Positions 4,858-53,870 of a stretch of 64,000 nt of DNA are shown one piece after another (positions within the stretch are counted from its first letter, which is position 1; each line of letters starts with the position of its first letter). The stretch is taken from the NCBI GenBank assembly GCA_018715045.1, contig DVMH01000022.1, positions 10,291-74,290 of the forward strand. Reading direction: 5' to 3'. Under the pieces are notes generated by a model, which saw only the letters and a program-made list of their open reading frames with translations, made no database searches and was not told the origin of the DNA. The position numbers and the translations under genes were made by a program. Origin of the DNA: Candidatus Avidehalobacter gallistercoris (lineage in GTDB: Bacteria; Bacillota; Dehalobacteriia; UBA4068; UBA4997).

Positions 4858-4904
4858 AAAACCTAAGGCAGTAAATGGGTGATAGGTATAAGGAGGATTT
4901 AACC

Positions 4905-20759: not shown

Positions 20760-20847
20760 TGGTGCGGATGAAGGGACTTGAACCCCCACGAAGTCAACCC
20801 TCACTAGAACCTGAATCTAGCGCGTCTGCCAATTCCGCCACATCCGC
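20760..20847 (-). tRNA. tRNA-Leu (anticodon CAG), type II with long variable arm, encoded CCA
   Basis: Reverse complement GCGGATGTGGCGGAATTGGCAGACGCGCTAGATTCAGGTTCTAGTGAGGGTTGACTTCGTGGGGGTTCAAGTCCCTTCATCCGCACCA. 7-bp acceptor stem, anticodon loop TTCAGGT, TΨC arm GGTTCAAGTCC. Confidence 0.9.
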
Positions 20848-23031: not shown

Positions 23032-24951
23032 GTGCAGGCATACCGATTGTTGGACGAGAAGGCCGCTTATCTTTATAACAGGGGCGAATACTTTCACGCC
23101 TATCATTCTTTGGGTGCGCATCCGCAAGAGATTGATGGGGTTCGGGGTACTGGTTTTGTCGTGTTTGCACCAAAGGCTTCTGCGGTAAATGTGGTTGGCG
23201 ATTTTAACGTATGGTGCGGCGAGGGTTTTGCCATGCAGCCGCTGGAGGGCGGCTTTTGGCAGCTTTTTGTGCCGGGCGTTGCTCCGGGCGCGTTATATAA
23301 ATACTGTATAACTACGCAGGACGGGAGAGTGCTTTATAAGGCCGACCCTTTTGCTTTTGCTTCTGAGAAAAGGCCTGGTACTGCCAGCCGGGTGGCGGAT
23401 ATTTCCGAATTCCGCTGGCATGATGCGAAGTGGCTTGCGGCACGGCGTAAGCATTCGCATTTTGAGCGACCGATGAATATTTATGAAATGCATCTGGGCA
23501 GCTGGCGGCGGCATGATGCAACGACGGATAACCCGGAGGGTTTTTGGGATTATACCGAATTGGCCGAACAGCTGCCGCCATATCTTAAGAAAATGGGCTA
23601 TACCTATGTGGAATTTATGCCGCTGATGGAGCATCCGCTGGACGATTCCTGGGGCTATCAGATTACCGGCTATTTTGCGCCTACCAGTCGCTTTGGTGAG
23701 CCGCAGGGTTTAATGCACCTGATCGACGCGCTGCACCAGGCTGGTATCGGCGTAATATTGGACTGGGTTCCGGGACATTTCTGCCGCGACGAGCAGGGGC
23801 TGGCGGAATTTGACGGCACGCCGCTTTATGAGGCGGAGGATCATGCTGTTTGGGGAACGTATAAATTCAATTTTACCAAATCTGAAGTGCAGAGTTTTCT
23901 GATCAGCAACGCATTTTTCTGGCTCGAGCAATATCATGCCGACGGTATTCGGGTGGACGGCGTGACCAGTATGTTATATCTGAACTTTGGCGTGGATAAT
24001 CCGGCTAAGAAGCGTTATAATCCTGACGGCAGCGAGGAATGTTACCCTGCTTCGGCGTTTATTCGCAAATTGAACCAAACGGTGAGTTCCTATTTCCCTG
24101 ATGTATTTATGGTGGCGGAGGAAAGCACCGCCTGGCCGTTGGTTACCTATCCTCCCTCGGCGGGAGGGCTGGGCTTCCATTATAAATGGGATATGGGCTG
24201 GATGAACGATACCCTGCGCTATATGAGTATCGATTTCCCCGGGCGGCCATACAACCACCGGCTGCTGACGTTCTCAATGATGTACGCGTTCAATGAGAAT
24301 TTTATCCTGCCGCTTTCGCATGACGAGGTGGTGCATGGCAAATGTTCGCTGATCGGGCGAATGCCAGGCGATTATTGGCGGCAGTTTGCGGGTCTGCGTT
24401 TGCTTTATATGTATCAGCTGACGCACAGCGGGGCAAAACTTAATTTTATGGGCAGTGAGATAGGCCAGTTTATCGAATGGCGTTTTGCCGAGCAGTTGGA
24501 ATGGTTTCTGCTGGATTATCCGGCGCATTTGGCGCACCAGCGGTTTGTGGCGGCGGCCAATCAGATTTATTTGAAAGAAAGGGCATTATGGCAGCAAAAC
24601 TATGCCTGGGAGGGTTTTGTATGGGAAGAGGCGGACAACGAGCAGCAGGGCGTGCTGATCTTTCGGCGGCAGGGCAGGAGAGCGCGCGATTTTCTGCTGG
24701 TAATATTGAATTTTCAGCCGCAAACATATTACGATTACTCTGTGGGTGTGCCGCACGGCGGCAGGTATAGCGAGATATTAAACAGCGACGCGGCGGATTT
24801 TGGCGGCAGCGGCAAAATCAACCCGCAGGAGATTCGCGCGGTCAAACTGCCTAAATTATGCGGCGAAGCGCAGCTTATGCATGGGCAGCCCTACGCGATA
24901 AAACTGACGGTTCCTCCACTGGGCGGGGTTATAATTAAGCCTCATTCCTAG
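23032..24951 (+). CDS. glgB: 1,4-alpha-glucan branching enzyme
   Basis: 639 aa; GH13 branching-enzyme motifs (GYTYVEFMPLMEHP...SWGYQ, DWVPGHF, HYKWDMGWM). GTG start. Confidence 0.9.
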   Translation: MQAYRLLDEKAAYLYNRGEYFHAYHSLGAHPQEIDGVRGTGFVVFAPKASAVNVVGDFNVWCGEGFAMQPLEGGFWQLFVPGVAPGALYKYCITTQDGRVLYKADPFAFASEKRPGTASRVADISEFRWHDAKWLAARRKHSHFERPMNIYEMHLGSWRRHDATTDNPEGFWDYTELAEQLPPYLKKMGYTYVEFMPLMEHPLDDSWGYQITGYFAPTSRFGEPQGLMHLIDALHQAGIGVILDWVPGHFCRDEQGLAEFDGTPLYEAEDHAVWGTYKFNFTKSEVQSFLISNAFFWLEQYHADGIRVDGVTSMLYLNFGVDNPAKKRYNPDGSEECYPASAFIRKLNQTVSSYFPDVFMVAEESTAWPLVTYPPSAGGLGFHYKWDMGWMNDTLRYMSIDFPGRPYNHRLLTFSMMYAFNENFILPLSHDEVVHGKCSLIGRMPGDYWRQFAGLRLLYMYQLTHSGAKLNFMGSEIGQFIEWRFAEQLEWFLLDYPAHLAHQRFVAAANQIYLKERALWQQNYAWEGFVWEEADNEQQGVLIFRRQGRRARDFLLVILNFQPQTYYDYSVGVPHGGRYSEILNSDAADFGGSGKINPQEIRAVKLPKLCGEAQLMHGQPYAIKLTVPPLGGVIIKPHS

Positions 24952-24989
24952 TATACATAAACAATGCTTTTAAGGAGGCTGTAAAATAG

Positions 24990-27431
24990 ATGACAGAAAC
25001 GATGGGTACGAGGATATTCCAGGACAAAGCCGAGTTCGTGCGGGAATATAAAAACGAATTTCTGCGCTCAGTGGCCGAACCTTTTGAAACCTGCGACAAG
25101 CAGGGAAAATATGCGGCGCTGGTGCGGCTGATTGCAGGCAAAGCGGCAATCCTTTCGTCAGAGACGCAGCAGCGGCATCAGGACAATTCTGCCAAGCAGG
25201 TCTATTATTTTTCAATGGAGTTTCTGATTGGGCGGCTGCTTCAAAATTACCTTTTGAATCTGGGCGTTACAGACATTGTGCGGGAGGGGCTGGCGGAGCT
25301 TGGCGAGGATTTGGACGAGCTTTGCGCCTGTGAGCGTGATCCCGGTCTCGGCAACGGTGGCCTGGGGCGTTTGGCAGCCTGTTTTTTGGACTCTTTGGCC
25401 TGTTTAGGCCTGGCGGGATATGGCATGGGTATCCGCTATCGTTACGGCCTGTTTCGCCAGCGTATTGTGGACGGCGCCCAGCATGAGGAGCCGGACGACT
25501 GGCTGGCCTATGGCTTCCCGTGGGAGCTTTGCAAGCAGGAGGATGCGGTGGAGGTGCGCTTCGGCGGCGAGGTGCAGCGGCAGTATCATGACGGGCGGCT
25601 GTTCTTTCGCCATCATGGCTATAAGGCGGTGCGCGCCGTGCCGTATGACGTGCCGATAGTCGGCTTCGGCAATAGTACGGTGAATAAACTCCGCTTATGG
25701 TCGGCGCAGCCAGTGCAGGAAAAACTTGATCTGGCGGCTTTTAATCGGGGTGATTACAGTGCCGCTATGCGCGACCGCAATGACGTAAAGGCCATCACCT
25801 GCATTTTATACCCTGATGACAGTACCGATGCCGGCAAAGTTCTGCGGCTGAAGCAGGAATACTTTTTCACTTCGGCGGGCTTGCAGTCGATTTTGAATCA
25901 GTATAAGGAACGGTTCGGTAGTGCGGCGTGGGATGAATTCCCGCAGCGGGTGGCGGTGCATATTAATGACACGCACCCTGCTCTGGCCGTGCCAGAGCTG
26001 ATGCGTCTGCTGGTTGATGAAGAGAACGTTGGCTGGGACGAGGCATGGCGCATAACTACCAGCACTATCTCCTACACCAATCACACGGTGCTTCCTGAGG
26101 CGCTGGAGAAATGGGCGATTGATCTGGTGCGGACGCTGCTGCCCCGTGTGTATATGATAATTGAAGAAATTGACCGCCGCTACCGTGAGAGCTTCGCGGG
26201 AGCGGATGCGGGCTGGCAGGAGCGTCTGAAAGCCACCGCTGTGCTTTGGGATGGTCAGGTTCGTATGGCGAATTTATCCGTTATTGGCAGTCATGCCGTT
26301 AACGGTGTTGCCGAATTGCACACCGAGATATTAAAGCATGACGTTTTGCGAGATTTTTATCAATTGACGCCGGAAAAGTTCCAGAATAAGACTAACGGAG
26401 TCAGTCATCGCCGCTTTTTATTGGCGGCTAATCCTGGTCTTTCCCGCCTGATTGACGAGGCTATCGGCGATGACTGGCAGAAAGACGCGGATGAGCTGGA
26501 AAAACTGCTGCCCTATGCGGCTGACGCCAAATTTCAGGCGGATTTTGCCGCTGTAAAGCGGCAGAACAAGCAGCGTCTGGCCGAATATGTGCGAAGAAGC
26601 AGCGGCGTGCTGCTTGATCCGGATGCAGTTTTTGATGTGCAGGTAAAGCGTATCCATGCCTATAAGCGGCAGCTGTTGAATGTGTTTAAGATTATGCATC
26701 TGTATAACCTGTTGAAGTCTGGCGAGGCGGCCGATTTGCCGCCAACCTGTTTCATTTTTGCCGGCAAGGCGGCGCAGGGTTATGCGTTTGCCAAAGAGGT
26801 TATCAGGCTGATTTGCAGCGTGGCCAGCCTGGTGAACAGCGACCCCATCTGCCGCGGACATTTGCAGGTGGCGTTTATTGAGAATTTTAACGTCAGCACG
26901 GGCGAGATTATCTATCCGGCTGCCGACATCAGCGAACAGATATCCACTGCCGGCAAGGAGGCCAGCGGCACTGGCAACATGAAGTTTATGTTTAACGGCG
27001 CGGTGACGCTGGGAACTTTGGACGGCGCTAATATTGAGATTCTGGAGCGTGTGGGTCGCGATAACATCTGCATTTTTGGCCTGACAGCAGAGCAGGTCAT
27101 GGATTATTATCTCTCCGGCGGTTATCTGGCTTTTGACGAATGTAAGAACGACGCACGACTGAAAAGACTGACTGAGCAGCTGGTTGACGGTACGTTTGCT
27201 GCGGCTGGCGGCGATTTCTGGGGGATTTATGACCCGTTGCTGCGGAATAATGACGAATACTTTGTGCTTAAGGATTTCGGCGCGTATCTGGCGGCCTGGC
27301 AGCAGGTGGCTGGCTGGTATCAGCAGCCGGATCTTTGGCGGCAGATGGCCGTGACTAACGTTGCAAAAGCGGGTTATTTCAGTAGTGATCGCACTATCCG
27401 GGAATACGCGCAGGATATCTGGCATCTGTAA
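24990..27431 (+). CDS. glgP: Glycogen/alpha-glucan phosphorylase
   Basis: 813 aa; YFSMEFLIGR, the PLP-lysine region EISTAGKEASGTGNMKFMFNGA and TSISYTNHTVLPEALE. Confidence 0.92.
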   Translation: MTETMGTRIFQDKAEFVREYKNEFLRSVAEPFETCDKQGKYAALVRLIAGKAAILSSETQQRHQDNSAKQVYYFSMEFLIGRLLQNYLLNLGVTDIVREGLAELGEDLDELCACERDPGLGNGGLGRLAACFLDSLACLGLAGYGMGIRYRYGLFRQRIVDGAQHEEPDDWLAYGFPWELCKQEDAVEVRFGGEVQRQYHDGRLFFRHHGYKAVRAVPYDVPIVGFGNSTVNKLRLWSAQPVQEKLDLAAFNRGDYSAAMRDRNDVKAITCILYPDDSTDAGKVLRLKQEYFFTSAGLQSILNQYKERFGSAAWDEFPQRVAVHINDTHPALAVPELMRLLVDEENVGWDEAWRITTSTISYTNHTVLPEALEKWAIDLVRTLLPRVYMIIEEIDRRYRESFAGADAGWQERLKATAVLWDGQVRMANLSVIGSHAVNGVAELHTEILKHDVLRDFYQLTPEKFQNKTNGVSHRRFLLAANPGLSRLIDEAIGDDWQKDADELEKLLPYAADAKFQADFAAVKRQNKQRLAEYVRRSSGVLLDPDAVFDVQVKRIHAYKRQLLNVFKIMHLYNLLKSGEAADLPPTCFIFAGKAAQGYAFAKEVIRLICSVASLVNSDPICRGHLQVAFIENFNVSTGEIIYPAADISEQISTAGKEASGTGNMKFMFNGAVTLGTLDGANIEILERVGRDNICIFGLTAEQVMDYYLSGGYLAFDECKNDARLKRLTEQLVDGTFAAAGGDFWGIYDPLLRNNDEYFVLKDFGAYLAAWQQVAGWYQQPDLWRQMAVTNVAKAGYFSSDRTIREYAQDIWHL

Positions 27432-27475
27432 ACGTAAGTATTGTTGAGAGTTTTGAGTGAGGGAGGTTTTCTTTG

Positions 27476-28636
27476 ATGAGCAAAAAAGAATGTCTGGCTA
27501 TGCTGCTGGCGGGCGGCCAAGGCAGCCGTCTGGGGGCGTTGACCAGAAAAATCGCCAAGCCGGCTGTTTCGTTCGGCGGCAAATACCGTATCATTGATTT
27601 CAGCCTAAGCAACTGTGTTAATTCCGGTATTGATACCGTGGGTGTGCTGACGCAGTATCGGCCGCTGATGCTGAATTCCTACATCGGTACTGGCGCGCCC
27701 TGGGATTTGGATGAGGCCGCAGGCGGTGTTTTCGTGCTGCCGCCGTATGCTACGCAGGACGGCGCGGAATGGTATAACGGTACTGCGGATGCGGTGTATA
27801 AAAATTTGGATTTTATTGAAAGCTATGACCCGGAATATGTGCTGATCATCTCCGGAGACCACCTTTATAAGATGGACTACAATCTGATGCTGGATTTCCA
27901 CAAGCAAAGCGGTGCGGAACTTACCGTTTCTGTCATTGAGGTGCCGCTGGAGGAAGCTGGACGTTTCGGTATCATCACGGCGGCGGCAGACGGCAAAATC
28001 GAGAAGTTTACTGAAAAGCCTGCCAATCCGGACAGCAATCTTGCCTCGATGGGGATCTACATATTCAACTGGCCAACGTTAAAGCAGGCGCTGTTGGCTG
28101 ACGCTAAACTCAGCGAGTCTGATCATGATTTCGGCAAGAACGTGATCCCCATGCTTTTAGCCGAGGGGAAACGCCTTTATGCCTATGCCTTTTCCGGCTA
28201 CTGGAAAGACGTTGGCACGATTGAAAGCTATTATCAGACCAGCATGGACCTGCTGCGTGAGGACAGCGAGTTTGACATCTTCTCTGGCGGGCAGCGCATT
28301 TTCAGCAATTCCAACATCTATCCGCCGCATTATGTGGGCGAGAATGCTGTCATTGAAAATGCCGTGGTTTGCAATGGCTGCACTGTGCTGGGTGAGGTGA
28401 AAAACTCTATTGTCAGCTCTGAGGCGTATGTGGGCGCAGGGGCTAAGGTGGAAAACGCCATACTTCTTCCCGGCGCACGGGTGGAAAACGGCGCCCGCGT
28501 CATGCGCGCTATCGTGGGCGAGGGCGCGGTGATTGAGATGAACGCTTATTTCGGCAGCATGGAAGAGACCGAGCCTGTGCAGGTCTGCGGCGACGGCGAG
28601 CATATCAAGGACGATTTGTGGAGCAGGGGGTATTAA
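27476..28636 (+). CDS. glgC: Glucose-1-phosphate adenylyltransferase
   Basis: [13 protein letters not shown]...[25 protein letters not shown] matches GlgC. GGGAGG SD precedes ATG 27476. Confidence 0.92.
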
Positions 28637-28637
28637 A

Positions 28638-29741
28638 ATGAGCGGCAGAATTCTAGGACTGATTTCCTGCAACTATAATAACGACGCGTTTGGCAGCCTG
28701 ACTGCTGAACGAGGTATGGCGGCGCTGCCTTTCGGCGGACGCTACCGCGTGCTGGATTTTCCTCTTTCCAACATGGTGAACTCAGGCATACGCACGATCG
28801 GGCTGATTACGCCCTATCATTACCGCGCCATTATGGATCACGTCGGCGTGGGCAAGGAATGGTCGCTGAACCGCAAAAGCGGCGGTATGTTCATTCTGCC
28901 GGGCTCGATTTACGGACTGAAGAATATGCGCTCTACATTTCTTCTGCGCGACATAATTCAGAATCGTGCTTTTTTGGAGCGCGGCGATGAGGAATATGTC
29001 CTCGTTTCCGGCAGCCATAAGGTGTATAATATGGATATGCGGCCGCTTTTTGCGGCTCACCGTGCTTCTGGCTGTGATGTGACGCTGCTTTATAAACAAA
29101 CGGATGACGCTGAAAACCACAAAGAAAGCTATCTGATACTGGACGGTGACCGGGTCAAGGGCTTTGCAGCCGAGGCGCAGGGCAGCGCGGCTTGCTTTAT
29201 GGACTGCTTCATCATTAACCGCGAGCTGCTGCTTAAGTTTATCGAATGGTATAAGGCGCTGGGTTATCTGGATGTGATGGATATTATGGCGGAGAACCTG
29301 CCGAACCTGAACGTGGGTGCTTATCCGTTTGAGGGTTACCTGGGTCAGATGAACAATATCCGCGATTATATGGCCTGTTCGCAAGACCTGCTGCGTGAGG
29401 AGGTACGGCGAGAGGTGTTCTCTGCCGAGCATAAGGTTTGCACCAAAGCTCAGGATAACCCGCCCGCCAAATACGGCGTAAATCCCCTGGTACATAATGC
29501 GCTTGTGCCCACTGGCTGCATTATTGACGGCACGGTGGAAAACAGTATTCTGTTTCGCGGTGTTAAAGTGGGAGAGGGGGCGGTTGTCCGAAACTGTGTC
29601 ATCATGCAGAAAACCGTGGTGGAAGCGGGTGCAGTGCTGGAAAATGTCATCTGCGATAAATATGTGACCGTTAGCCGTGGCAACAAGCTGTTCGGTACGT
29701 CTGCCAAGCCGTTGGTGATACCCAAGGGAAGCGAAATTTAA
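28638..29741 (+). CDS. glgD: Glucose-1-phosphate adenylyltransferase regulatory subunit GlgD
   Basis: Paralog of GlgC lacking the GGxGxRL activator-site glycine run (ALPFGGRYRVLDFPLSNMVNSGI); sits immediately after glgC, as in Firmicutes. Confidence 0.85.
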   Translation: MSGRILGLISCNYNNDAFGSLTAERGMAALPFGGRYRVLDFPLSNMVNSGIRTIGLITPYHYRAIMDHVGVGKEWSLNRKSGGMFILPGSIYGLKNMRSTFLLRDIIQNRAFLERGDEEYVLVSGSHKVYNMDMRPLFAAHRASGCDVTLLYKQTDDAENHKESYLILDGDRVKGFAAEAQGSAACFMDCFIINRELLLKFIEWYKALGYLDVMDIMAENLPNLNVGAYPFEGYLGQMNNIRDYMACSQDLLREEVRREVFSAEHKVCTKAQDNPPAKYGVNPLVHNALVPTGCIIDGTVENSILFRGVKVGEGAVVRNCVIMQKTVVEAGAVLENVICDKYVTVSRGNKLFGTSAKPLVIPKGSEI

Positions 29742-29777
29742 TTTAAGTGAATTACATTGAAACGGGTGAAATAAAAT

Positions 29778-31235
29778 ATGGTAAAAAGCAAAAATGCGCC
29801 GCGGGTTTTGTTTGCCAGCTTTGAGGCCGAGCCTTTCGGTAAAACCGGCGGCCTGGGCGAGGTGGCGGGGAGCCTGCCACAGGCGCTGAAACGGGCTGGT
29901 GCGGAGGTGCGCGTAATACTCCCGAAACTGCCGACTATGCCGGAAAGGCTTGCAGCGCGGCTTCAGCACGTGGCGGATTTTAAGCTGCCGCTGGGCTGGC
30001 GCTGGCAGTATTGCGGCGTTGAGCGGCTGGACTATAAGTATCAGACCTATTATTTCATCGATAATGAGTATTATTTTAAGCGCGGCGCTTTCTATGGCTA
30101 TGACGATGACGCCGAGCGCATCGCCTTTTTTGCCAAGGCGGTGCTGGAGGCTTTACAGTATATCCCGGATTTTCAACCGCAGCTTATCCACTGCAACGAC
30201 TGGCATACCGCGCTGGTGCCGGTGCTGCTTAGGGAGCAGTATATGCAGGCCGCGGGCTATAGTGGGATCAGAACGCTGTTTTCAGTGCATAATCTGAGAT
30301 TTCAGGGTAAATATGACCCCAATTTTTTGGGCGACGTATTGGGCTTGGCGGATAAAAAGCCCGCGCGTGATCAGCTTATCCGCGATGGGGCGCTGAATTA
30401 TATGTTGGGAGGGATCTGCTATGCCGACCGTCTGCTTACAGTGAGTCCCACCTATGCGGAGGAGATTTGTACGCCCGCTTTTGGCGAAGGGCTGGACGAT
30501 GTGTTCCGCCGTCGTGGGAATGTGCTGGCCGGCGTGTTAAACGGTATTGACGTTAAAACATATGACCCGGAGCGTGACAAATTTATTCCGGCCTGTTTCA
30601 GCGCTGCCAAAATGACCGGCAAGGCCGCCTGCAAAGCTGCCGCACAGCGCGAGTTCAACCTGCCGGAGCGGTCTGATTTGCCTATGTTGGTGCTTATAAG
30701 CCGTCTGACTGAGCAGAAAGGGCTTGACCTGCTGCTGCATATTCTGGGCGAACTGCTGGAGCAACCGGTGCAGGTGGCGGTACTGGGCGTTGGTGACCAA
30801 AAATATGAAAATGCTTTTCGCTGGTTTAACGATAAATATGAGAATTTTGCCTGCCGTCTGCAATTTGACGACCGGCTGGCGCATTTGCTTTATGCTGGGG
30901 GCGACGCTCTGTTGATGCCATCAAAATTCGAGCCATGCGGGCTGGCGCAGATGATTGCCATGCGCTATGGCACGTTGCCCATTGTGCGGGAAACAGGAGG
31001 GCTTAAAGATAGCGTCACACCTTATAACCAATATACTGGTGGAGGCACGGGCTTCAGCTTCGCCAATTATAACGCGCATGAGCTGCTGTTTACGGCAAAA
31101 ATGGCATTGAGTGTTTATTATGACAGCCCCAAGGTGTGGCGCCGTCTGCAAAAGCAGGCAATGGCGCAGGATTTCAGCTGGAACCGTTCGGCGGAAAAGT
31201 ATGTTGAAATTTATAAACAATTATTAAGCGAATAA
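29778..31235 (+). CDS. glgA: Glycogen synthase (ADP-glucose type)
   Basis: FASFEAEPFGKTGGLGEV...LP; GT5 family C-terminal motifs (PSKFEPCGLAQMIAMRYGTLPIVRETGGL). Confidence 0.92.
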   Translation: MVKSKNAPRVLFASFEAEPFGKTGGLGEVAGSLPQALKRAGAEVRVILPKLPTMPERLAARLQHVADFKLPLGWRWQYCGVERLDYKYQTYYFIDNEYYFKRGAFYGYDDDAERIAFFAKAVLEALQYIPDFQPQLIHCNDWHTALVPVLLREQYMQAAGYSGIRTLFSVHNLRFQGKYDPNFLGDVLGLADKKPARDQLIRDGALNYMLGGICYADRLLTVSPTYAEEICTPAFGEGLDDVFRRRGNVLAGVLNGIDVKTYDPERDKFIPACFSAAKMTGKAACKAAAQREFNLPERSDLPMLVLISRLTEQKGLDLLLHILGELLEQPVQVAVLGVGDQKYENAFRWFNDKYENFACRLQFDDRLAHLLYAGGDALLMPSKFEPCGLAQMIAMRYGTLPIVRETGGLKDSVTPYNQYTGGGTGFSFANYNAHELLFTAKMALSVYYDSPKVWRRLQKQAMAQDFSWNRSAEKYVEIYKQLLSE

Positions 31236-31250
31236 CGGAGATAATGCTTG

Positions 31251-34200
31251 ATGAGGCTTTTGCATGATTCCCACCGGGCGGAGTATCGCTCGCCTTTCGG
31301 TGCGCTGCCGCTGGGCAAGAGTTTAACTCTCTCTCTGGATGTTTGGGACGAGGATACCGAGGATGGTGGCTGGCTAACGGACGCCAAGCTGCGTGTTTGG
31401 CGTGAAGGACGGGGTGAAGAACTGCTGACGCTTACCCCTCAGATTTTAAGTGAAAATTACCGCCGTTTCAGCGTAACCATGCCGCCGGAGGAGGAACCGG
31501 GGCTGTTTTGGTATTATTTTATGTTGCAAGAAGCTTCGGGCAGTCTGCTTTTTTATGGCAACAATGCGGCGCACATGGGCGGCGTGGGAGAGATGAACCT
31601 CTCCGAACCCTGTTCTTATCAGGTGACGGTTTATCGACCAGAAGTTACTCCCGCCTGGTATCGGCGGGCGGTGTGCTATCAGATTTTTCCCGACCGTTTC
31701 TGCCGGGGCGATGATTGGCAGGACTGTCAGCGGCGGGCGGCAGCGGCTGATTGGCTTGGTTCCTGCCGCGTAGTGCAGCAAAGCTGGCATGACAAGCCGT
31801 TTTACGGCTATGACGACAAGGGGCGTGTGGTGCGCTGGCCATTTTTTGGCGGCAATCTTGCGGGTATTCGAGATAAGCTGCTGTATCTGAAAAGTCTCGG
31901 GGTGACGGCGGTTTACCTGAATCCTATCTTCCGTGCTACCTCCAATCACAAGTACGATACAGCGGATTATCGCCAGATCGATCCCAGTTTCGGTACGGAA
32001 GAAGACTTTGAGCTTCTTTGCGCGGCGGCGGCCAGGCTTGGTATCCGTATTATTCTGGACGGTGTGTTCAGTCACACCGGCGAGGACAGCCGTTATTTCA
32101 ACAAATTTGGCAATTATCCTGACCTGGGCGCGTATCAAAGCGAAGAATCGCTCTATTATTCGTGGTATAAATTTAAGAATTACCCGGAGGAATACGCCAG
32201 TTGGTGGGGTGTTTCTGCTTTGCCTGAGGTGAATGAGCAGGATGAAAGTTACCGCCGTTTTATGCTTGGTGAGGACGGTGTGGTGCGGTATTGGCTGCGG
32301 CATGGCGCTTCGGGCTGGCGGCTGGATGTGGCTGACGAACTGCCAGACGCGTTTATTCGGGATTTGCGGCAGGCTGCCAAGGCGGAAAAGCCGGACTCCC
32401 TGATTCTGGGCGAGGTGTGGGAGGACGCAAGCAACAAACGGAGCTATGGCGATCTGCGCTCCTATTTGCTGGGCGGCGAGCTGGACGCGACAATGAACTA
32501 TCCGTTCCGGGATCGTGCGCTGGCTTATCTTATGGGCGAGCAGAGGGCAGATGATTTGGCAGCGGCGCTTATGAGTCTGAAAGAGAATTATCCGCCGGAG
32601 CATTTCGCCGCGGCGCTGAATCTGCTGGGTTCACATGATACGCCGCGGGTGCTGACGGTGTTGTCAGGCGCTGTGGAGCCTGCCGACAAAATTGCGGCGG
32701 AGTATTTTACGCTTACGCCGGAACAGCGGGCATTGGCTAAAAGCCGTCTAAAACTACTTGCGCTCATGCAATTTGCTATGAGGGGTGTGCCGCACATTTA
32801 TTACGGCGACGAGGCGGGACTGGCTGGCTTTGCCGACCCATTTAACCGTGCGCCTTATCCATGGGGCGATGAGGATGATGAGCTGCTGGACTGGTACCGT
32901 CGCTTGAGCCGCCTGCGTGGAGAATACGATTTGCTGGTGGACGGAGATTTTCAACCGCAGGCGCTCTCACCGGACGTTTATGCCTGCCGCCGTTATTGGA
33001 CGGATAGCGATGAGAATCATGATGAGAATAATATAGAAGAAATCTGGTTGGTATGCAACCGATTGGGCGAGCCTCAAGAGGCCAAAGTGCCGCTTTCTGC
33101 TGCTTTCGGCTGGGGTATTGAGCTGCTTTCCGGCGAAGAAACGGATGTAAAAGGAGGTTTGAGTCGAATGCTGCCGCCTTATGGGGCGGAAATTTGGTTA
33201 TTCCGCTCTGCGGCGCCGCAGCCAATCAAACTTCCCCGTATGGCAGGCGTGCTGTGCCCAGTGTTGGCGCTGCCGACTTCCGAGGGGGGCTGGGTCTCTT
33301 CTTGCCGTCGTTTCGTGGATTTTCTGACTTTGGCTGGACAGAAATTGTGGCAGGTACTGCCGCTTAACCCGGTGGCGGAAAGCTTATCCCCCTACACGCC
33401 GCTTTCAGTGTTTGCAGGGCAGGAGCAGCTGGCGGCAGAGCTTTTGCGGTGTGTGGACTGGAGCGCCGAGCCGTCGGAGGAGTATTTTGAGTTTTGTCGT
33501 AATAACGCTGACTGGCTGGACGATTACGCTCTGTTTGCCGCTATCTGCGAGGCACGGGCGGGGCTGCCCTGGCAGCGCTGGCCACAGGCAGAGCGTGAAC
33601 GCGAGGATGTACCGCGTCTGATGGCCGCTTATGCTGAGGGGATGGAGAATTGCCGCCGCCGGCAGTATCTGTTCCGACGCGAATGGCATACTGTGAAAGA
33701 CTATGCTAACAAGCATGGCATACGTATTATCGGCGATCTGCCCATCTATCCTGCAGCGGCTGGAGCAGACGTTTGGGCGCACCGCGATTTGTTCCTGCTG
33801 GACGAGGCTGGTTATCCGCTTCTTTCCGCCGGTGTGCCGCCTGATTATTTTGCCGCCAGGGGACAGAACTGGGGTAACCCGCTTTATAACTGGGAAGCCA
33901 TGCGCCAGGATAACTACCGTTGGTGGCGTCGGCGTTTTGAGCTGGCGCTGGAGGATTTCGATTACCTGAGGCTTGATCATTTTCGCAGCTTTGCCGCTTT
34001 CTATGCGATACCGCAGGGCGAGGACGCAACGCAGGGATGCTGGCTGAAGGGGCCGGGGCATGGTTTTTTCCGCAGTATCGAGCGTGAACTGGGGCGTTTG
34101 CCTTTGCTGGCTGAGGATCTGGGCTTCCTGGACCGCGAGGTGTATAACCTGCTGCGGCTGGCAGCATACCCAGGTATGGCCGTTTATCAGTTTGAGCCGG

Positions 34201-34523
34201 AAAGAATTGCGGACGCGGCGTATCTCTCCGGGCGTGTTCTATATAGCGGTACGCATGATAACCAGACTTTGGCGGGCTGGCTTTCTGCCAGGGGTGGCGT
34301 GCCGGCGGTGGAGCGCGAACGGCAGGTGATAAATGAGCTTTATCAGAGTCAGGCGCCGTGGGTGATAATACCTTTGCAGGATATGTTCTCGTTGGGCGAT
34401 GAGGCGCGTCTGAACGTGCCGGGACAGGCCGAGGGCAACTGGCGCTGGCAGGCGGACTGGCAGCAATTCAAGCTGACGCTGGCGGCGGAGTATCAGAAAA
34501 TGGCCAAAAGTGCCGGACGTTAA
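31251..34523 (+). CDS. Two-domain protein: N-terminal GH13 alpha-amylase-family catalytic domain fused to C-terminal GH77 4-alpha-glucanotransferase (amylomaltase, MalQ-like)
   Basis: GH13 conserved regions I-IV (DGVFSHT; GWRLDVADE; LGEVWED; LLGSHDTPR). From about residue 660, RMAGVLCPVLALPTSEGG...FVDFL..AGQKLWQVLPLNP...SPY matches the MalQ N-terminus, and the rest matches GH77 (GDLPIYPAAAGADVW...NWGNPLYNWEAM). A single uninterrupted 1091-aa frame. Confidence 0.8.
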   Translation: MRLLHDSHRAEYRSPFGALPLGKSLTLSLDVWDEDTEDGGWLTDAKLRVWREGRGEELLTLTPQILSENYRRFSVTMPPEEEPGLFWYYFMLQEASGSLLFYGNNAAHMGGVGEMNLSEPCSYQVTVYRPEVTPAWYRRAVCYQIFPDRFCRGDDWQDCQRRAAAADWLGSCRVVQQSWHDKPFYGYDDKGRVVRWPFFGGNLAGIRDKLLYLKSLGVTAVYLNPIFRATSNHKYDTADYRQIDPSFGTEEDFELLCAAAARLGIRIILDGVFSHTGEDSRYFNKFGNYPDLGAYQSEESLYYSWYKFKNYPEEYASWWGVSALPEVNEQDESYRRFMLGEDGVVRYWLRHGASGWRLDVADELPDAFIRDLRQAAKAEKPDSLILGEVWEDASNKRSYGDLRSYLLGGELDATMNYPFRDRALAYLMGEQRADDLAAALMSLKENYPPEHFAAALNLLGSHDTPRVLTVLSGAVEPADKIAAEYFTLTPEQRALAKSRLKLLALMQFAMRGVPHIYYGDEAGLAGFADPFNRAPYPWGDEDDELLDWYRRLSRLRGEYDLLVDGDFQPQALSPDVYACRRYWTDSDENHDENNIEEIWLVCNRLGEPQEAKVPLSAAFGWGIELLSGEETDVKGGLSRMLPPYGAEIWLFRSAAPQPIKLPRMAGVLCPVLALPTSEGGWVSSCRRFVDFLTLAGQKLWQVLPLNPVAESLSPYTPLSVFAGQEQLAAELLRCVDWSAEPSEEYFEFCRNNADWLDDYALFAAICEARAGLPWQRWPQAEREREDVPRLMAAYAEGMENCRRRQYLFRREWHTVKDYANKHGIRIIGDLPIYPAAAGADVWAHRDLFLLDEAGYPLLSAGVPPDYFAARGQNWGNPLYNWEAMRQDNYRWWRRRFELALEDFDYLRLDHFRSFAAFYAIPQGEDATQGCWLKGPGHGFFRSIERELGRLPLLAEDLGFLDREVYNLLRLAAYPGMAVYQFEPERIADAAYLSGRVLYSGTHDNQTLAGWLSARGGVPAVERERQVINELYQSQAPWVIIPLQDMFSLGDEARLNVPGQAEGNWRWQADWQQFKLTLAAEYQKMAKSAGR

Positions 34524-37391: not shown

Positions 37392-37468
37392 TGGTCGGGA
37401 TGACAGGATTCGAACCTGCGGCCCTCTGGTCCCAAACCAGATGCGCTACCAAACTGCGCTACATCCCG
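37392..37468 (-). tRNA. tRNA-Pro (anticodon TGG), encoded CCA
   Basis: Reverse complement CGGGATGTAGCGCAGTTTGGTAGCGCATCTGGTTTGGGACCAGAGGGCCGCAGGTTCGAATCCTGTCATCCCGACCA. Cloverleaf with anticodon loop TTTGGGA. Confidence 0.9.
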
Positions 37469-40858: not shown

Positions 40859-40962
40859 GCTTGCACCATATTACAAAAAACTCTATAAAATTATTAAATT
40901 CGCGATGGGCGACGGTTTTTCCTGCTCGTATGATAAGATTTGCCGCGCTGCCGGGGAGGTAT

Positions 40963-42138
40963 ATGATGGAAGAACAAAAACTGCTGTTGTTTGCCGGTCT
41001 GCTGGAGGACGATTTTGTGCGCGCGCTGGCGAGGCATGATGATAACGCTGCTACGCGAGCGCTGTGTCAGCAACTTTGCAAGGGCGGGTTGGGCTGGCGC
41101 CCGGTGGAAAATTACGTGCTTTGGCTACTGTTGAAAGAGCCGAGTCTGCTTGCTTTGCGGGCGGCGGCGGGAGAGTATCTTGCCGCGTCATTAATGGCTC
41201 AGGCGGCGGTGGAGATAGCCGTGCTGCAAGGATGGCTGCAAGCTTGTCATAAGCCGGACTGGTTACAGAGTGCTGACGACCCGGATTGGCTGCCCGACAG
41301 TCTGACATCATGGGTGACGGATCAGGCTGATCATGTAGCTGAGAATCTGGCAGGTTTTTACCAGCGCTTTGGGTTTGGCGAGCTGGCGCTGCACCGTGTT
41401 TGGCGCTGGGATGGCAGGCTTACGCCTGTGCATGATTTTGACGCGATTACTCTTTCCGATTTGATTGGCTATCAAAGCCAGAAAGAAGAGGTGATGCAGA
41501 ACACCCGGCTTTTTGTGCGCACCGGGCGTGGCAATAATCTGCTGCTTTACGGAGCGCGCGGCACCGGCAAGTCTTCCCTGATCAAGGCGGTGGCGAATGA
41601 ACTGGCAGCAGAGGGGCTTTGTCTGGTGGAGCTGCCGCTTGACCGCATTGCCGATTTGCCGCATTTGCAGGCAGTGCTTAGCCGTCAGCCGCGTCATTAC
41701 ATTATTTATATCGACGATCTTTCGTTTGAGAAAGCTGATCAGGATTATAAACTGACCAAGGCGGTTCTGGAAGGAAGTGTGGCCGCTCTTGGCGGAAACG
41801 TGTTGATCTATGCCACTTCTAACCGGCGGCATTTGATCGTGGAGAACTGGCAGGATCGCGAGGGCGCGCGGCATGAAAACGGCGAGGTGCGCGCTGCCGA
41901 TAGCATGAGCGAGAAGCTTTCGCTGGCTGACCGCTTCGGCCAGACGGTGTTATTTACCACGCCGAATCAGGAGGAATATCTGCGCATTGTGGCTGCCTTG
42001 GCGGAGGCGGACGGTGTAACGCTGCCCCAGGCGGAGCTTAGGGAAAGGGCGCTGCAATGGGCTCTTTGGCAGAATGGTTGCAGCGGACGCACGGCGCGGC
42101 AGTTTGTGAACAGCCTTACGGCAGGGGGTGTGAAATAA
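40963..42138 (+). CDS. DUF815-family P-loop ATPase (AAA-like)
   Basis: Walker A (LLLYGARGTGKSSLIKAV) and Walker B (HYIIYIDDLSFE). GGGGAGGT SD precedes ATG 40963; the track ORF start (40861) would abut the divergent gene. Confidence 0.65.
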   Translation: MMEEQKLLLFAGLLEDDFVRALARHDDNAATRALCQQLCKGGLGWRPVENYVLWLLLKEPSLLALRAAAGEYLAASLMAQAAVEIAVLQGWLQACHKPDWLQSADDPDWLPDSLTSWVTDQADHVAENLAGFYQRFGFGELALHRVWRWDGRLTPVHDFDAITLSDLIGYQSQKEEVMQNTRLFVRTGRGNNLLLYGARGTGKSSLIKAVANELAAEGLCLVELPLDRIADLPHLQAVLSRQPRHYIIYIDDLSFEKADQDYKLTKAVLEGSVAALGGNVLIYATSNRRHLIVENWQDREGARHENGEVRAADSMSEKLSLADRFGQTVLFTTPNQEEYLRIVAALAEADGVTLPQAELRERALQWALWQNGCSGRTARQFVNSLTAGGVK

Positions 42139-48847: not shown

Positions 48848-48906
48848 AAACAGGATGGTATGAAGGCGCGTTTCCCACAAGGACAACATTAGAATCGTTC
48901 AAAGCA

Positions 48907-48943
48907 GTAAAGGCTGCCACAGAATTTCTGTGGCAGCCTTTAC
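48907..48943. terminator. Bidirectional terminator hairpin (perfect 16-bp palindrome GTAAAGGCTGCCACAG-aattt-CTGTGGCAGCCTTTAC) between convergent corA and the MarR-GT8 gene
   Basis: Read directly from the sequence; flanked by A/T-rich runs. Confidence 0.55.
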
Positions 48944-49086
48944 TCAAAGTTCAATATACCGCTAAAGATCGTGTTGCAGGAGATTAAAGTAACGGCGATA
49001 GATAACATAGAGCGTACACCAAAACGGTATCTCTGCGTTACTGGCTCCAGCAAAAATATATTTCGCTGATGATGTTATAGCAAAGG

Positions 49087-50406
49087 TTATTTCTTGGTGT
49101 CGGATTTTAACGGCAGGCCATATTCGTGATAGAAAGTATCCAGGATTCCGATATAATGGGGCTCCCATGGCTTGTTCTTGCCAAAATAGTGAATGACCAC
49201 GCTGTTTTCACGCACCCACTTGAGATTCAGCGTGGGGTTGGCTGGGTTGGCGTTGTAGAAAGCCAGGATTCTGTCGTTTATGTTGTAGAGCAGGGTGTCA
49301 AGAATCTTTACTCTATCCCCGTAGAGCGCAGTCAGAATGTCCTGATCAGGGAGGACAAGCAAGCGTTGGTTCTCGAGTCCATACTTCCGTATCTGGTCCA
49401 GATCCAAATGCTGCCGGAGCTGCGGGAGATTCATCAGCATGACCCCGGTGTTGATATAGGGAACATCTTTTTCAATTTTCAGACGGAATTTATTAAACTT
49501 CTGCAAAAAATCACCGGTATGTGTGCAGGCTGCAAACCAGTTACCAGCAAAATCGGTATGGTAAAGCTGCGTCAGCGGGTTGATCACCACCGTATCCACG
49601 TCCAGATAAAGCACACGATCCAAATCGCCGGGGAGCAGCAGGGGCGCTGCCAGGCGGTAATAGATTTGTTTCGGATACCGTGCTGTTTCCGGAAAACCTG
49701 CGAATAGATTTTCCGGAACATGGATGAACTGGAATTGGAACGGAGTTCCGGCCGCTTGCTGAACCGATTCTTTCATTTCGTCCGTTAAGTCGGAATGCAG
49801 GACATAGACCTGATAACGTCCGCCTCCGCCCCGTATCTGGATGGAGTGGAGGCAGCTGAGCAATAGTGGTATATATTTGTGGTTGATGGCGAATAGGAGA
49901 TTCATAGGCTTTCCATCAGTACTTTTTGCTGGCAGCTCCAAGGATGTGTGAGAGCCGGAGTTTTCCCGGAACTCATCTTTCAGAAAGGTTATATACTGTC
50001 TGAGAATGCGCAGGAACGTGAGCCGGTCATCCGGGGGTATCTGCTGAAACGCCCGCTGTTCCGCTTCGGTCATTGGCAGGACGATACTCTTGCCATAGGC
50101 CTGTCCTGTTGCGGTCAGATGGATATTTTTGCGGTTTCTGGTACCGGGAACCACCTCCAGAAAAGCATATCCTTTCCGTACCATCTGCGCGACCAGTGTG
50201 TTGACTGTCTGCTTGGAGAGCGACCAGACCTTGCAGATTTCTTTCTGAGATTGTTCTCCCTCAAACATGATCAGAGAATACCAGATCCAAAACTCATTCT
50301 CTGAAACGCCACATCGATTAATTGCCTGACGGTAGATCTCAAAAAACTCATTGAATTGCTGATTCAGGCTTTCTAACTGCTTATTGGCCATGTTGTCCAT
50401 ATTCAC
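49087..50406 (-). CDS. Fusion protein: N-terminal MarR-type winged-helix domain plus C-terminal GT8-family glycosyltransferase domain
   Basis: Residues about 1-140 carry a MarR wHTH (EQSQKEICKVWSLSKQTVNTLVAQMVRKGYAFLEVVPGTRNRKNIHLTATG). Residues about 175-439 carry GT8 motifs: NLLFAINHKYIPLLLSCLHS, the DxD motif YLDVDTVV, and YINTGVMLMNL. Confidence 0.7.
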   Translation of the reverse strand: MNMDNMANKQLESLNQQFNEFFEIYRQAINRCGVSENEFWIWYSLIMFEGEQSQKEICKVWSLSKQTVNTLVAQMVRKGYAFLEVVPGTRNRKNIHLTATGQAYGKSIVLPMTEAEQRAFQQIPPDDRLTFLRILRQYITFLKDEFRENSGSHTSLELPAKSTDGKPMNLLFAINHKYIPLLLSCLHSIQIRGGGGRYQVYVLHSDLTDEMKESVQQAAGTPFQFQFIHVPENLFAGFPETARYPKQIYYRLAAPLLLPGDLDRVLYLDVDTVVINPLTQLYHTDFAGNWFAACTHTGDFLQKFNKFRLKIEKDVPYINTGVMLMNLPQLRQHLDLDQIRKYGLENQRLLVLPDQDILTALYGDRVKILDTLLYNINDRILAFYNANPANPTLNLKWVRENSVVIHYFGKNKPWEPHYIGILDTFYHEYGLPLKSDTKK

Positions 50407-50494
50407 TCCTCCTGCAAGTATTCCGTTCTGTATCTTTTATTTTAGTCCTGTTTCGTACTCTTGTCAATGAGATTACAGAAAAGAAAAGGCGGTT

Positions 50495-51439: not shown

Positions 51440-51596
51440 TATAACCTCCTGGTTAAAAGAATGTAAAAAAACCGCGTTTGCGGTTGCTATTTTGCTGTGA
51501 TTTGTTTAGAATTATAATAGTAAGGTTTGAGTATGTTAGTTTGATAATAACAGTTTAGCATATATGCGGCGTTTTGTCTAATAAGGAGGGGATTTT

Positions 51597-53354: not shown

Positions 53355-53516
53355 TACAAACGCCCTGCCGCTTTTTGGCTGGGCGTTTTTTATGGGAGAA
53401 TGCGGTGGATTTTGGCGAGTATATTTTCCTCCTTTCATGGGGAGTATCATGGATAAGAGCGGGTCTGAATAGCCGTACATAAGGCCGGCCTGCCAAAATC
53501 TGTGGGAGTGAGCAAA

Positions 53517-53870
53517 ATGTCGCTGAAACGGGGAGATATATTTTTTGCTGAGCTGAATCCGGTGCAGGGCAGCGAACAGGGGGGCGTGCGCCCTGTTCTG
53601 GTGGTGCAGAACGACGTGGGCAACAATTTCAGCCCGACTACTATAATACTTCCTATAACTTCCAAACTGAGCAAGGCCAAGCTGCCCACACATGTGGAGA
53701 TTTCCCGCCGTGAATCAGGCCTGTCGCGTGATTCGGTAGTGCTGGCTGAGCAGATACGCACCATTGACAAGGTGCGCCTGCAGCAGAAAGTGGCTTGTTT
53801 GAACGAAATTACAATGTCACGCATTGATCATGCGATGGAGATAAGCATGGGTATTGTTCCCACAACTTAA
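53517..53870 (+). CDS. ndoA: MazF/EndoA-type endoribonuclease toxin
   Basis: Roughly 65% identical over its length to B. subtilis EndoA (KRGD.YFA.L.PV.GSEQGGVRPVLV.QND.GN.FSPT.I...IT....KAKLPTHVEI......RDSV.L.EQIRTIDK.RL). GGGAG SD precedes ATG 53517. Confidence 0.85.
   Translation: MSLKRGDIFFAELNPVQGSEQGGVRPVLVVQNDVGNNFSPTTIILPITSKLSKAKLPTHVEISRRESGLSRDSVVLAEQIRTIDKVRLQQKVACLNEITMSRIDHAMEISMGIVPTT

Follow-up and report, generated by a model that had tools for sequence, protein, structure and literature searches.

The 64,000-nucleotide stretch of Candidatus Avidehalobacter gallistercoris DNA analyzed here as a whole, hereafter the window (GenBank assembly GCA_018715045.1, contig DVMH01000022.1, positions 10,291 to 74,290), carries on its minus strand, at 49087–50406, a single open-reading frame (ORF) in which a MarR-type winged-helix-turn-helix (wHTH) regulator is joined to a glycosyltransferase of family GT8. 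On balance, we favor the reading that its product is an autorepressed glycosyltransferase, which would have arisen by in-frame fusion of an autoregulatory MarR repressor with the GT8 encoded downstream of it. The evidence lies in a junction that is open in other assemblies and one base away from a split gene, in a predicted operator placed within the gene's own promoter, and in the free-standing relatives of the regulator, which share that operator.

Results

Two domains in one reading frame

Counted from its GTG codon, the ORF at 49087–50406 encodes 439 amino acids. The GTG directly abuts a Shine-Dalgarno (SD) sequence, AGGAGGA (50407–50413, minus strand, read from the sequence), and an ATG at 50400, two codons further on, lies at a spacing of 6 nt from it. 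Since this spacing agrees with the point at which database homologues begin (MDNMANK..., 437 aa), the ATG is most likely the true start, giving a protein of 437 residues whose gene ends in the TAA codon at 49087–49089 (minus strand).

The first 145 residues (49966–50400, minus strand) make up the MarR module, as delimited by Pfam, AlphaFold2 (AF2), Foldseek and homologue identity, which is 53–60% to free-standing MarR proteins of 145–155 aa. Pfam MarR_2 (PF12802) matches residues 45–89 at 30.6 bits, above its cut-off of 27, and phmmer against PDB sequences finds the MarR protein 3g3z over residues 7–117 (E = 4e-8). A combined alignment of fusions, MarR-only and GT8-only sequences (A1) was discarded, MAFFT having placed the MarR-only sequences over the GT8 region, and the two modules were modelled from separate alignments, A2 and A3. 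The AF2 monomer built from A2, which holds 71 homologues of the MarR module, has a pLDDT of 92.6 and a pTM of 0.82 and follows the canonical order a1-a2-a3-a4-b-hairpin wing-a5-a6, with helices a1 (residues 3–30), a2 (34–45, NEFWIWYSL) and a3 (52–59), the recognition helix a4 (63–75, SKQTVNT), the wing (79–95, PGTRNRKNIHLT), and the C-terminal helices a5 (97–119) and a6 (123–145). The top 50 Foldseek matches listed from the PDB are all MarR proteins, several of them bound to operator DNA, and the best is NMB1585 (3g3z; TM 0.79, rmsd 2.4 Å over 141 columns, 27% identity). Residues invariant in the family cluster in the recognition helix (K63, Q64, T65, N67) and in the wing (P85, R88, N89, K91), and the fusion retains all of them. 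By sequence and predicted fold, the N-terminal part is a complete MarR protomer, in agreement with the initial annotation of this sequence, and not a helical extension of the GT8 type, which that annotation had raised as the alternative; it is predicted to dimerize and to bind DNA. Both termini of the module lie in the dimerization domain of the AF2 model, away from the DNA-binding face, so that a passenger should be tolerated at either end.

Across the regulator subfamily (alignment A2), helix a2 (residues 34–45) also carries an almost invariant aromatic cluster, F37, W38, W40 and Y41. The corresponding stretch of MarR proteins borders on the ligand pocket and the dimer interface, and by analogy the cluster may mark the effector site, the effector possibly being hydrophobic or lipidic.

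The GT8 domain occupies residues 166–437 (49090–49905, minus strand) and begins at the putative ancestral methionine (MNLLFAI). Pfam Glyco_transf_8 (PF01501) covers residues 169–415 at 110 bits against a cut-off of 24.3, and a search of PDB sequences with the C-terminal part returns the GT8 protein 3tzt (E = 1e-49) and LgtC (1g9r; 1e-18), the alpha-1,4-galactosyltransferase of Neisseria; GlyE (5gvv) is also among the sequence matches to the fusion protein. The DxD motif (D267-V-D269, 49594–49602), the DQD motif (352–354) and the segment HYFGKNKPW (404–412, containing H404...K410) align with the catalytic and Mn/UDP-binding residues of LgtC, and D267, D352, Q353, D354, H404 and K410 show little or no variation across 54 homologues. 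In the AF2 model, residues 166–430 have a pLDDT of 85–97 and form the alternating b/a elements of a GT-A fold. The complete GT8 domain with a DxD motif described earlier is thereby confirmed; its catalytic motifs appear intact and activity is predicted. The NCBIfam model for lipopolysaccharide (LPS) galactosyltransferases scores it at 49 bits, far under the cut-off of 461 bits, and the specificity of 3TZT, from Anaerococcus prevotii, is described as unknown (PMC10709319). Proteins 63–70% identical to the window's GT8 are free-standing and have no DNA-binding domain.

The fusion junction and its origin

The junction is open in three lineages and five assemblies, the window included. One of these is a close relative (locus L044) with 98.7% nucleotide identity and the same glk, fusion gene, corA and glmU synteny, and the others are three independent assemblies (L003, L004 and L005) of a homologue, P0002, that is 76% identical in amino acid sequence. 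The window and L044 differ by 13 synonymous and 3 non-synonymous substitutions spread over both domains, with 4 synonymous and 1 non-synonymous in the MarR module alone, and this module remains 72% identical to that of P0002 across a divergence at which the linker is no longer recognizable. These patterns indicate that both halves are under purifying selection and that the junction is genuine and not an assembly artefact, which answers the concern, raised with the initial annotation of a one-ORF fusion, that a sequencing error might have merged two genes.

A further contig, L042 (ENA ERZ27280402 k141_190394), is the same as the window at 1336 of 1337 positions, with no gaps. The sole difference in these 1,337 aligned bases falls in codon 146 (49963–49965, minus strand), which is GAA (Glu) in the window and TAA in L042. 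The TAA leaves a separate MarR protein of 145 aa, as long as is usual in the family, and 57 nt later a GT8 that starts from Met166, which opens with MNLLFAI, the N-terminus of free-standing GT8s. Because L042 splits in this way into a MarR protein of normal size and a GT8 with a canonical start, the 20-residue linker of the fusion (residues 146–165, ENSGSHTSLELPAKSTDGKP; 49906–49965, minus strand) is evidently a translated, in-frame intergenic spacer, and the fusion evidently arose by loss of the stop codon between a MarR regulator gene and the GT8 gene downstream of it. The linker is predicted to be disordered, with no secondary structure and a pLDDT of about 30 in the full-length AF2 model, and the P0002 linker is unrelated in sequence and two codons shorter (18 residues) yet still in frame. 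As fusion is seen in the diverged P0002 lineage too, the clade of the window and P0002 probably had the fused gene from its ancestor on, and L042 would be a secondary nonsense allele, or an error in the L042 assembly. The fused and split states are one base apart whichever explanation of L042 holds.

Two further observations concern the junction. Contig L043, from another sample, ends exactly at the polymorphic base of codon 146, which suggests strain-level heterogeneity that breaks assembly there; it was rejected as independent support for the split allele, as the contig merely ends at that base. In the linker DNA of P0002 (L003:988–2298), a strong relic SD, GGAGAGGGGGA, stands 5 nt before the internal GT8 methionine, and free GT8 could also be made in this lineage by internal initiation. 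The window equivalent of this relic is GGAAAG, which is weak.

A predicted operator in the promoter of the fusion gene

A sigma-70-type promoter lies at 50439–50467 (minus strand), with a -35 box TTGACA (50467–50462), a 17-nt spacer and a -10 box TAAAAT (50444–50439), and matches 11 of 12 consensus positions. The same TTGACA-17-TAnAAT layout is found upstream of homologous regulator genes in other loci. The spacer between the -35 and -10 boxes is filled by a 22-bp palindrome, AAGAGTACGAAACAGGACTAAA (50441–50462), predicted here to be operator site 1. Upstream regions were aligned by eye and then by pattern, and they have in common the layout TTGACA, 3 nt, GTCC-N6-GGAC and then the -10 box, with a family operator consensus of AAGAGTCC-N6-GGACTCTT (symmetrized, AAGAGTCCGAATTCGGACTCTT). 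Of 25 upstream regions, 19 have the 14-bp core exactly 3 nt past TTGACA, among them that of the window gene and those of fusions in either domain order, and 2 more have it 4 nt past; the fusions of reversed order in L002 and L007, described below, carry the same operator upstream. A second palindrome is usually present in relatives 27–32 nt downstream of site 1, and most free-standing relatives have two sites of 20–32 bits. What remains of site 2 in the window is a decayed remnant under the scan threshold (AAAGATACAGAACGGAATACTT, 50417–50438).

With a weight matrix trained without the window, a single strong match was obtained in the 64 kb, at 50441–50462, with 16.3 bits (15.7 with a uniform background), the next best match scoring 8.3. 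Across 406 kb of fetched loci, every match of at least 13 bits but one lies upstream of a gene that carries the module. The exception (L039:1199), a site between a TetR gene and an MMPL transporter gene, was set aside as unrelated, and the 14 loci with a GT8 but without the module yield no such match. A palindrome overlapping its own -35 and -10 boxes is the textbook layout of MarR autoregulation, and that the fusion gene has kept the regulator family's predicted operator in its promoter speaks for binding to DNA and for autoregulation. To this extent, the initial suggestion of a one-component regulator is upheld. Its other part, that the regulator senses the sugar nucleotide used by its GT8, finds no support here. 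Free-standing members have the same operator in the absence of a GT8, and the MarR module thus acts by itself.

The 3′ ends of corA and the fusion gene converge on a perfect inverted repeat with 19-nt arms and a 1-nt gap (48906–48944), a probable bidirectional terminator common to both genes, which a strict terminator scan did not call, its T-tracts being short. Upstream of the fusion gene there is no terminator, and the promoter with its palindromic operator site stands there instead. The gene had been described as isolated between strong palindromic terminators, and of these the downstream hairpin stands while the upstream element is a near-consensus promoter. The fusion gene is predicted to be monocistronic in the window, consisting of promoter, ORF and hairpin, as though a whole regulatory unit had collapsed into a single gene, and Rfam and tRNA scans found nothing at the locus. 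At 48–49% GC, the gene lies below the window as a whole (53.8%), glk (61%) and corA (50%), so the AT-richness relative to the neighbors noted earlier is real but modest. The window neighbors include the sugar-activation genes glk, pgm and glmU; the glk/corA synteny was considered as a functional clue and rejected, being absent in L003.

The free-standing regulator and its gene neighbors

The MarR module belongs to a small, tight and undescribed subfamily of Clostridia that is normally free-standing. In the fetched loci, free-standing modules are about 145–155 aa long and 43–60% identical to the window's, and the subfamily carries the signature NEFWIWYSL, SKQTVNT and PGTRNRK. A profile of the module, searched against 1.84 billion representatives, retrieved 37 at E<=1e-30 and 1439 at E<=1e-10, and the best 150 are all of free-standing size (at most 215 aa) except one, P0007; by this measure, fusion is rare in the subfamily. 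A literature search found no paper on the fusion, the MarR subfamily or its operator, and one for precedents of MarR-acetyltransferase fusions returned nothing useful.

The neighborhood theme of the free-standing regulator is membrane-lipid and envelope genes. Directly downstream of it lies a PgsA/ClsA-like CDP-alcohol phosphatidyltransferase in L001, L021, L023, L027 and L040, and such a gene also follows the reversed fusion in L007. Elsewhere, the downstream genes encode a PlsY-like acyltransferase with a UgtP/MGDG-synthase-like glycosyltransferase (L025), a CrtO-like glycolipid acyltransferase with a UgtP-like glycosyltransferase (L030, L031 and L033), UgtP-like glycosyltransferases (L032 and L035), or membrane proteins of the AI-2E, MatE/MurJ-like, DedA/VTT and CmpB types (L024, L026, L036, L027, L038, L041 and L037). 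The lipid enzymes score under the NCBIfam equivalog cut-offs and therefore look like accessory paralogues, not housekeeping copies. Three MarR-headed operons (L020:6001–7285, L035:10520–11392 and L036:7684–8553) have, directly downstream of the regulator, a GT8 from another subfamily with about 31% identity to that of the window, and in L020 the MarR and GT8 ORFs overlap stop to start by 11 nt. In L001, MarR, CDP-OH transferase and GT8 are separate genes, and this GT8 is the closest free relative of the window's (70% identity). The GT8 is among the few soluble partners of the regulator, and may for that reason be the partner that gets fused.

Fusions of the opposite order

The same pair of modules is also fused the other way round, with GT8 first and MarR last, in proteins of about 420 aa (P0003–P0009 and P0011). 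Databases label them 'hypothetical protein' or 'HTH marR-type domain-containing protein', and the architecture is thus present in public databases but unannotated; the P0005 cluster alone has 189 member sequences, and P0007 is H9X85_08140 of Anaerotignum lactatifermentans, for which an NCBI genome record exists. The window's GT8 is 63–70% identical to its unfused relatives compared to 52–56% to the GT8 of these fusions, and its MarR module is 54–59% identical to unfused relatives compared to 44–57% to the MarR of the fusions. Because each window module is closer to its unfused relatives, the two orders represent independent events. An apparent third fusion, of MarR to a CrtO acyltransferase in L030, was rejected, the MarR ending in a stop codon and CrtO lying in a different frame.

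Discussion

Proposed mechanism and the points that weigh against it

In an autorepressed glycosyltransferase of this kind, the N-terminal module would dimerize like other MarR proteins, and the dimer would occupy the palindrome in its own -35/-10 spacer and so block RNA polymerase, until the signal or ligand that releases the free-standing members of the subfamily lifts repression. The flexibly tethered GT8 would transfer a sugar from a UDP-sugar of the Glc or Gal type, with retention of configuration, to an acceptor that is probably a membrane or envelope lipid or glycolipid. Since repressor and enzyme would be made 1:1 in one polypeptide, the amount of enzyme would limit its own synthesis, and we infer that the fusion adds no coupling beyond this stoichiometry.

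Several points weigh against this account. DNA binding, repression and catalysis are all inferred from sequence, as are the nature of the inducer and the envelope-lipid acceptor, and the acceptor is assigned by association with the regulator's gene neighbors; the closest free-standing GT8s, P0014 and P0069, are singletons with uninformative surroundings. The window operator, like the sites of the MarR-GT8 lineage, is weaker than those of free-standing relatives (16 versus 18–33 bits for the window), and its second site has decayed, although a weaker operator might be expected if the repressor is also an enzyme that must accumulate. In 12 of 300 shuffles, some site within the 64 kb scores as high; significance from the score alone was rejected for this reason, and the operator claim rests on exact register and location. 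The matrix was trained on the same loci that were used to assess its specificity, with only the window held out. Finally, the module has been fused to GT8 twice independently and to no other partner, and this repeated choice of GT8 could point to a coupling closer than simple co-expression.

Such a coupling has been weighed as an explanation in its own right. A BirA- or PutA-like sensor-enzyme would change how its MarR module binds DNA when the GT8 is occupied by UDP-sugar or acceptor, or is recruited to the membrane, and substrate supply would set transcription. We hold this to be unlikely, though the likeliest of the rivals. It draws on the Rosetta-stone signal of two modules fused twice independently in opposite orders and adjacent elsewhere, on the position of both MarR termini away from the DNA surface in the model, which would make either order sterically compatible with regulation, and on the place of the window gene among glk, pgm and glmU, but the glk/pgm synteny is absent in L003, and free-standing regulators with the same operator control GT8-free operons, which points to a module with its own input. 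The linker, an unconserved and disordered former spacer, is unlike the usual allosteric connection, and the single-base split variant in a near-identical strain suggests that fused and split states may be interchangeable; together, linker and split allele argue weakly against tight coupling. The more specific proposition that the opposite-order fusions reflect molecular coupling, with the GT8 reporting UDP-sugar or lipid-acceptor status to the tethered repressor, seems to us somewhat more doubtful still; the routes could be an occupancy-dependent conformational change, PutA-like membrane sequestration or glycosylation of the regulator. Glycosylation as the switch itself, with the GT8 modifying the MarR module or another DNA-bound protein, is quite improbable. 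GT8 does include protein-modifying members, such as the self-glucosylating glycogenin, and protein glycosyltransferases of the family are represented by GlyE among the sequence matches, and exactly these two families are recurrently fused or adjacent, but a GT8 is missing from the surroundings of most regulators of the subfamily, and most close GT8s likewise lack a neighboring regulator.

The wHTH could also have ceased to be a regulator, kept as a dimerization or scaffold domain or decaying as a neutral passenger, a state of affairs with which the weakened operator, the lost second site and the rarity of the fusion (1 of the best 150 representatives) would agree. It is nevertheless improbable, given that every family-invariant residue of the recognition helix and wing is kept, that the module has 4 synonymous to 1 non-synonymous differences from L044 and 72% identity to P0002 despite an unrecognizable linker, and that the operator, in exact register, is still the sole strong match in the window. 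An artefact of sequencing or assembly that merged two genes is hinted at by the TAA at codon 146 of L042 and by the end of L043 at that base, a hint of strain heterogeneity in that sample, but we give it very little credence: the window and L044 both have the junction open, as do the three assemblies of the 76% homologue with its different in-frame linker, the difference is a substitution and not a homopolymer indel, and reversed-order fusions are numerous (the 189 members of the P0005 cluster, and the genome record of P0007). Least probable of all is the DNA-targeted glycosylation proposed in the initial annotation, in which the wHTH would deliver the GT8 to DNA for base modification. Only the co-occurrence of a DNA-binding and a glycosyltransferase domain speaks for it, whereas the GT8s 63–70% identical to the window's are free-standing, the site is predicted to be a classical autoregulatory operator in a promoter spacer, the regulator usually has membrane-lipid and envelope genes for partners, the window offers no phage or restriction-modification context, and loss of one stop codon would suffice to explain the fusion.

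Comparison with known systems

The features of the fusion protein can each be set beside a known counterpart. As a predicted MarR repressor (Pfam PF12802/PF01047), the window module has the six-helix-plus-wing fold and the size (145 aa) of NMB1585 of Neisseria meningitidis (3g3z) and, in silico, the palindrome over its own -35 and -10 boxes that is typical of MarR repressors, but it is covalently joined to an enzyme and belongs to a subfamily with its own signature, operator and envelope/lipid neighborhood. As a glycosyltransferase, it has the GT-A fold and aligned motifs of 3TZT and LgtC, and at about 270 aa its GT8 is like its free-standing relatives in size, but it carries an N-terminal DNA-binding module and lies outside any LPS/lipooligosaccharide (LOS) or polysaccharide cluster.

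Bifunctional repressor-enzymes such as BirA (biotin ligase), PutA (proline dehydrogenase) and NadR combine a DNA-binding domain, which acts on their own promoter, with a catalytic domain of the regulated pathway, and in BirA and PutA, the catalytic state controls DNA binding. The window protein resembles them in being one genuine polypeptide with DNA-binding and catalytic domains, and it belongs conceptually with these known fusions, not in a separate category. It differs from BirA and PutA in that its linker is a young, unconserved spacer and one base change separates the two functions, and the DNA-binding folds also differ, being a MarR wHTH dimer in the window protein, a wHTH in BirA and a ribbon-helix-helix in PutA. 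The reversed GT8-MarR proteins have the same module families and the same operator in the opposite order and, as judged above, from an independent event.

FabT-type MarR regulators control membrane-lipid synthesis in streptococci, and we take them as a lead only. They resemble the present subfamily as MarR-family repressors dedicated to membrane-lipid genes, but no fab genes lie among the neighbors of the subfamily in the fetched loci, where PgsA/ClsA, PlsY and UgtP paralogues, CrtO-like enzymes, GT8s and exporters are found instead. FabT structures are likewise not among the sequence or fold matches listed for the MarR module.

Other features of the window

A glycogen cluster at 23032–34523 encodes a GlgB-like branching enzyme (23032–24951), glycogen phosphorylase (24990–27431), products of further ORFs (27473–31235) and a 1091-aa protein in which a GH13 alpha-amylase domain is joined to a GH77 4-alpha-glucanotransferase (31248–34523). 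GT8 is also the family of glycogenin, but the proximity of the fusion gene to glk, pgm and the glycogen genes is treated as coincidental because the P0002 locus is without that synteny. Between the divergent genes glk and pgm, several promoter-like matches surround a short GC hairpin (AACCGCAAACGCGGTT, 51470–51485) with a T-run on the minus strand, and directly after pgm lies a PemK/MazF-type toxin gene (53502–53870, plus strand, 118 bits) for which no antitoxin ORF was identified. An 862-aa protein (4875–7463, plus strand) combines a NAGPA phosphodiester-glycosidase domain with three C-terminal SLH repeats, which points to an envelope enzyme anchored in an S-layer, and with it to a cell wall that has polymers able to bind SLH. 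A DUF815-family AAA ATPase is encoded at 40861–42138 (plus strand, 294 bits), and tRNA-Leu(CAG) (20760–20847) and tRNA-Pro(TGG) (37392–37468) lie on the minus strand; in the Rfam scan of the window, no family besides these tRNAs reaches its gathering score.

Conclusions

Repressor-enzyme fusions and MarR autoregulation are already well known, and no concept is overturned here. What the fusion gene offers is a clean natural example of how a regulator-enzyme fusion may be born, with one stop codon lost and a spacer turned into a linker, where fused and split alleles lie one base apart and other genomes have the same pair fused in reverse order. The analysis also delineates, in silico, a MarR subfamily of gut Clostridia not described before, together with its operator and a predicted local regulon of accessory membrane-lipid, glycolipid and exporter genes, and it gives a first contextual clue, that of envelope or membrane glycolipid chemistry, for the 3TZT subfamily of GT8. 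The predictions could be tested with one protein, one 22-bp DNA and UDP-sugars. Should the less likely molecular coupling hold true, the protein would act in gut Clostridia as a feedback device, complete in itself, for the homeostasis of envelope glycolipids, and this would be the first functional assignment for the orphan 3TZT-type GT8 subfamily.

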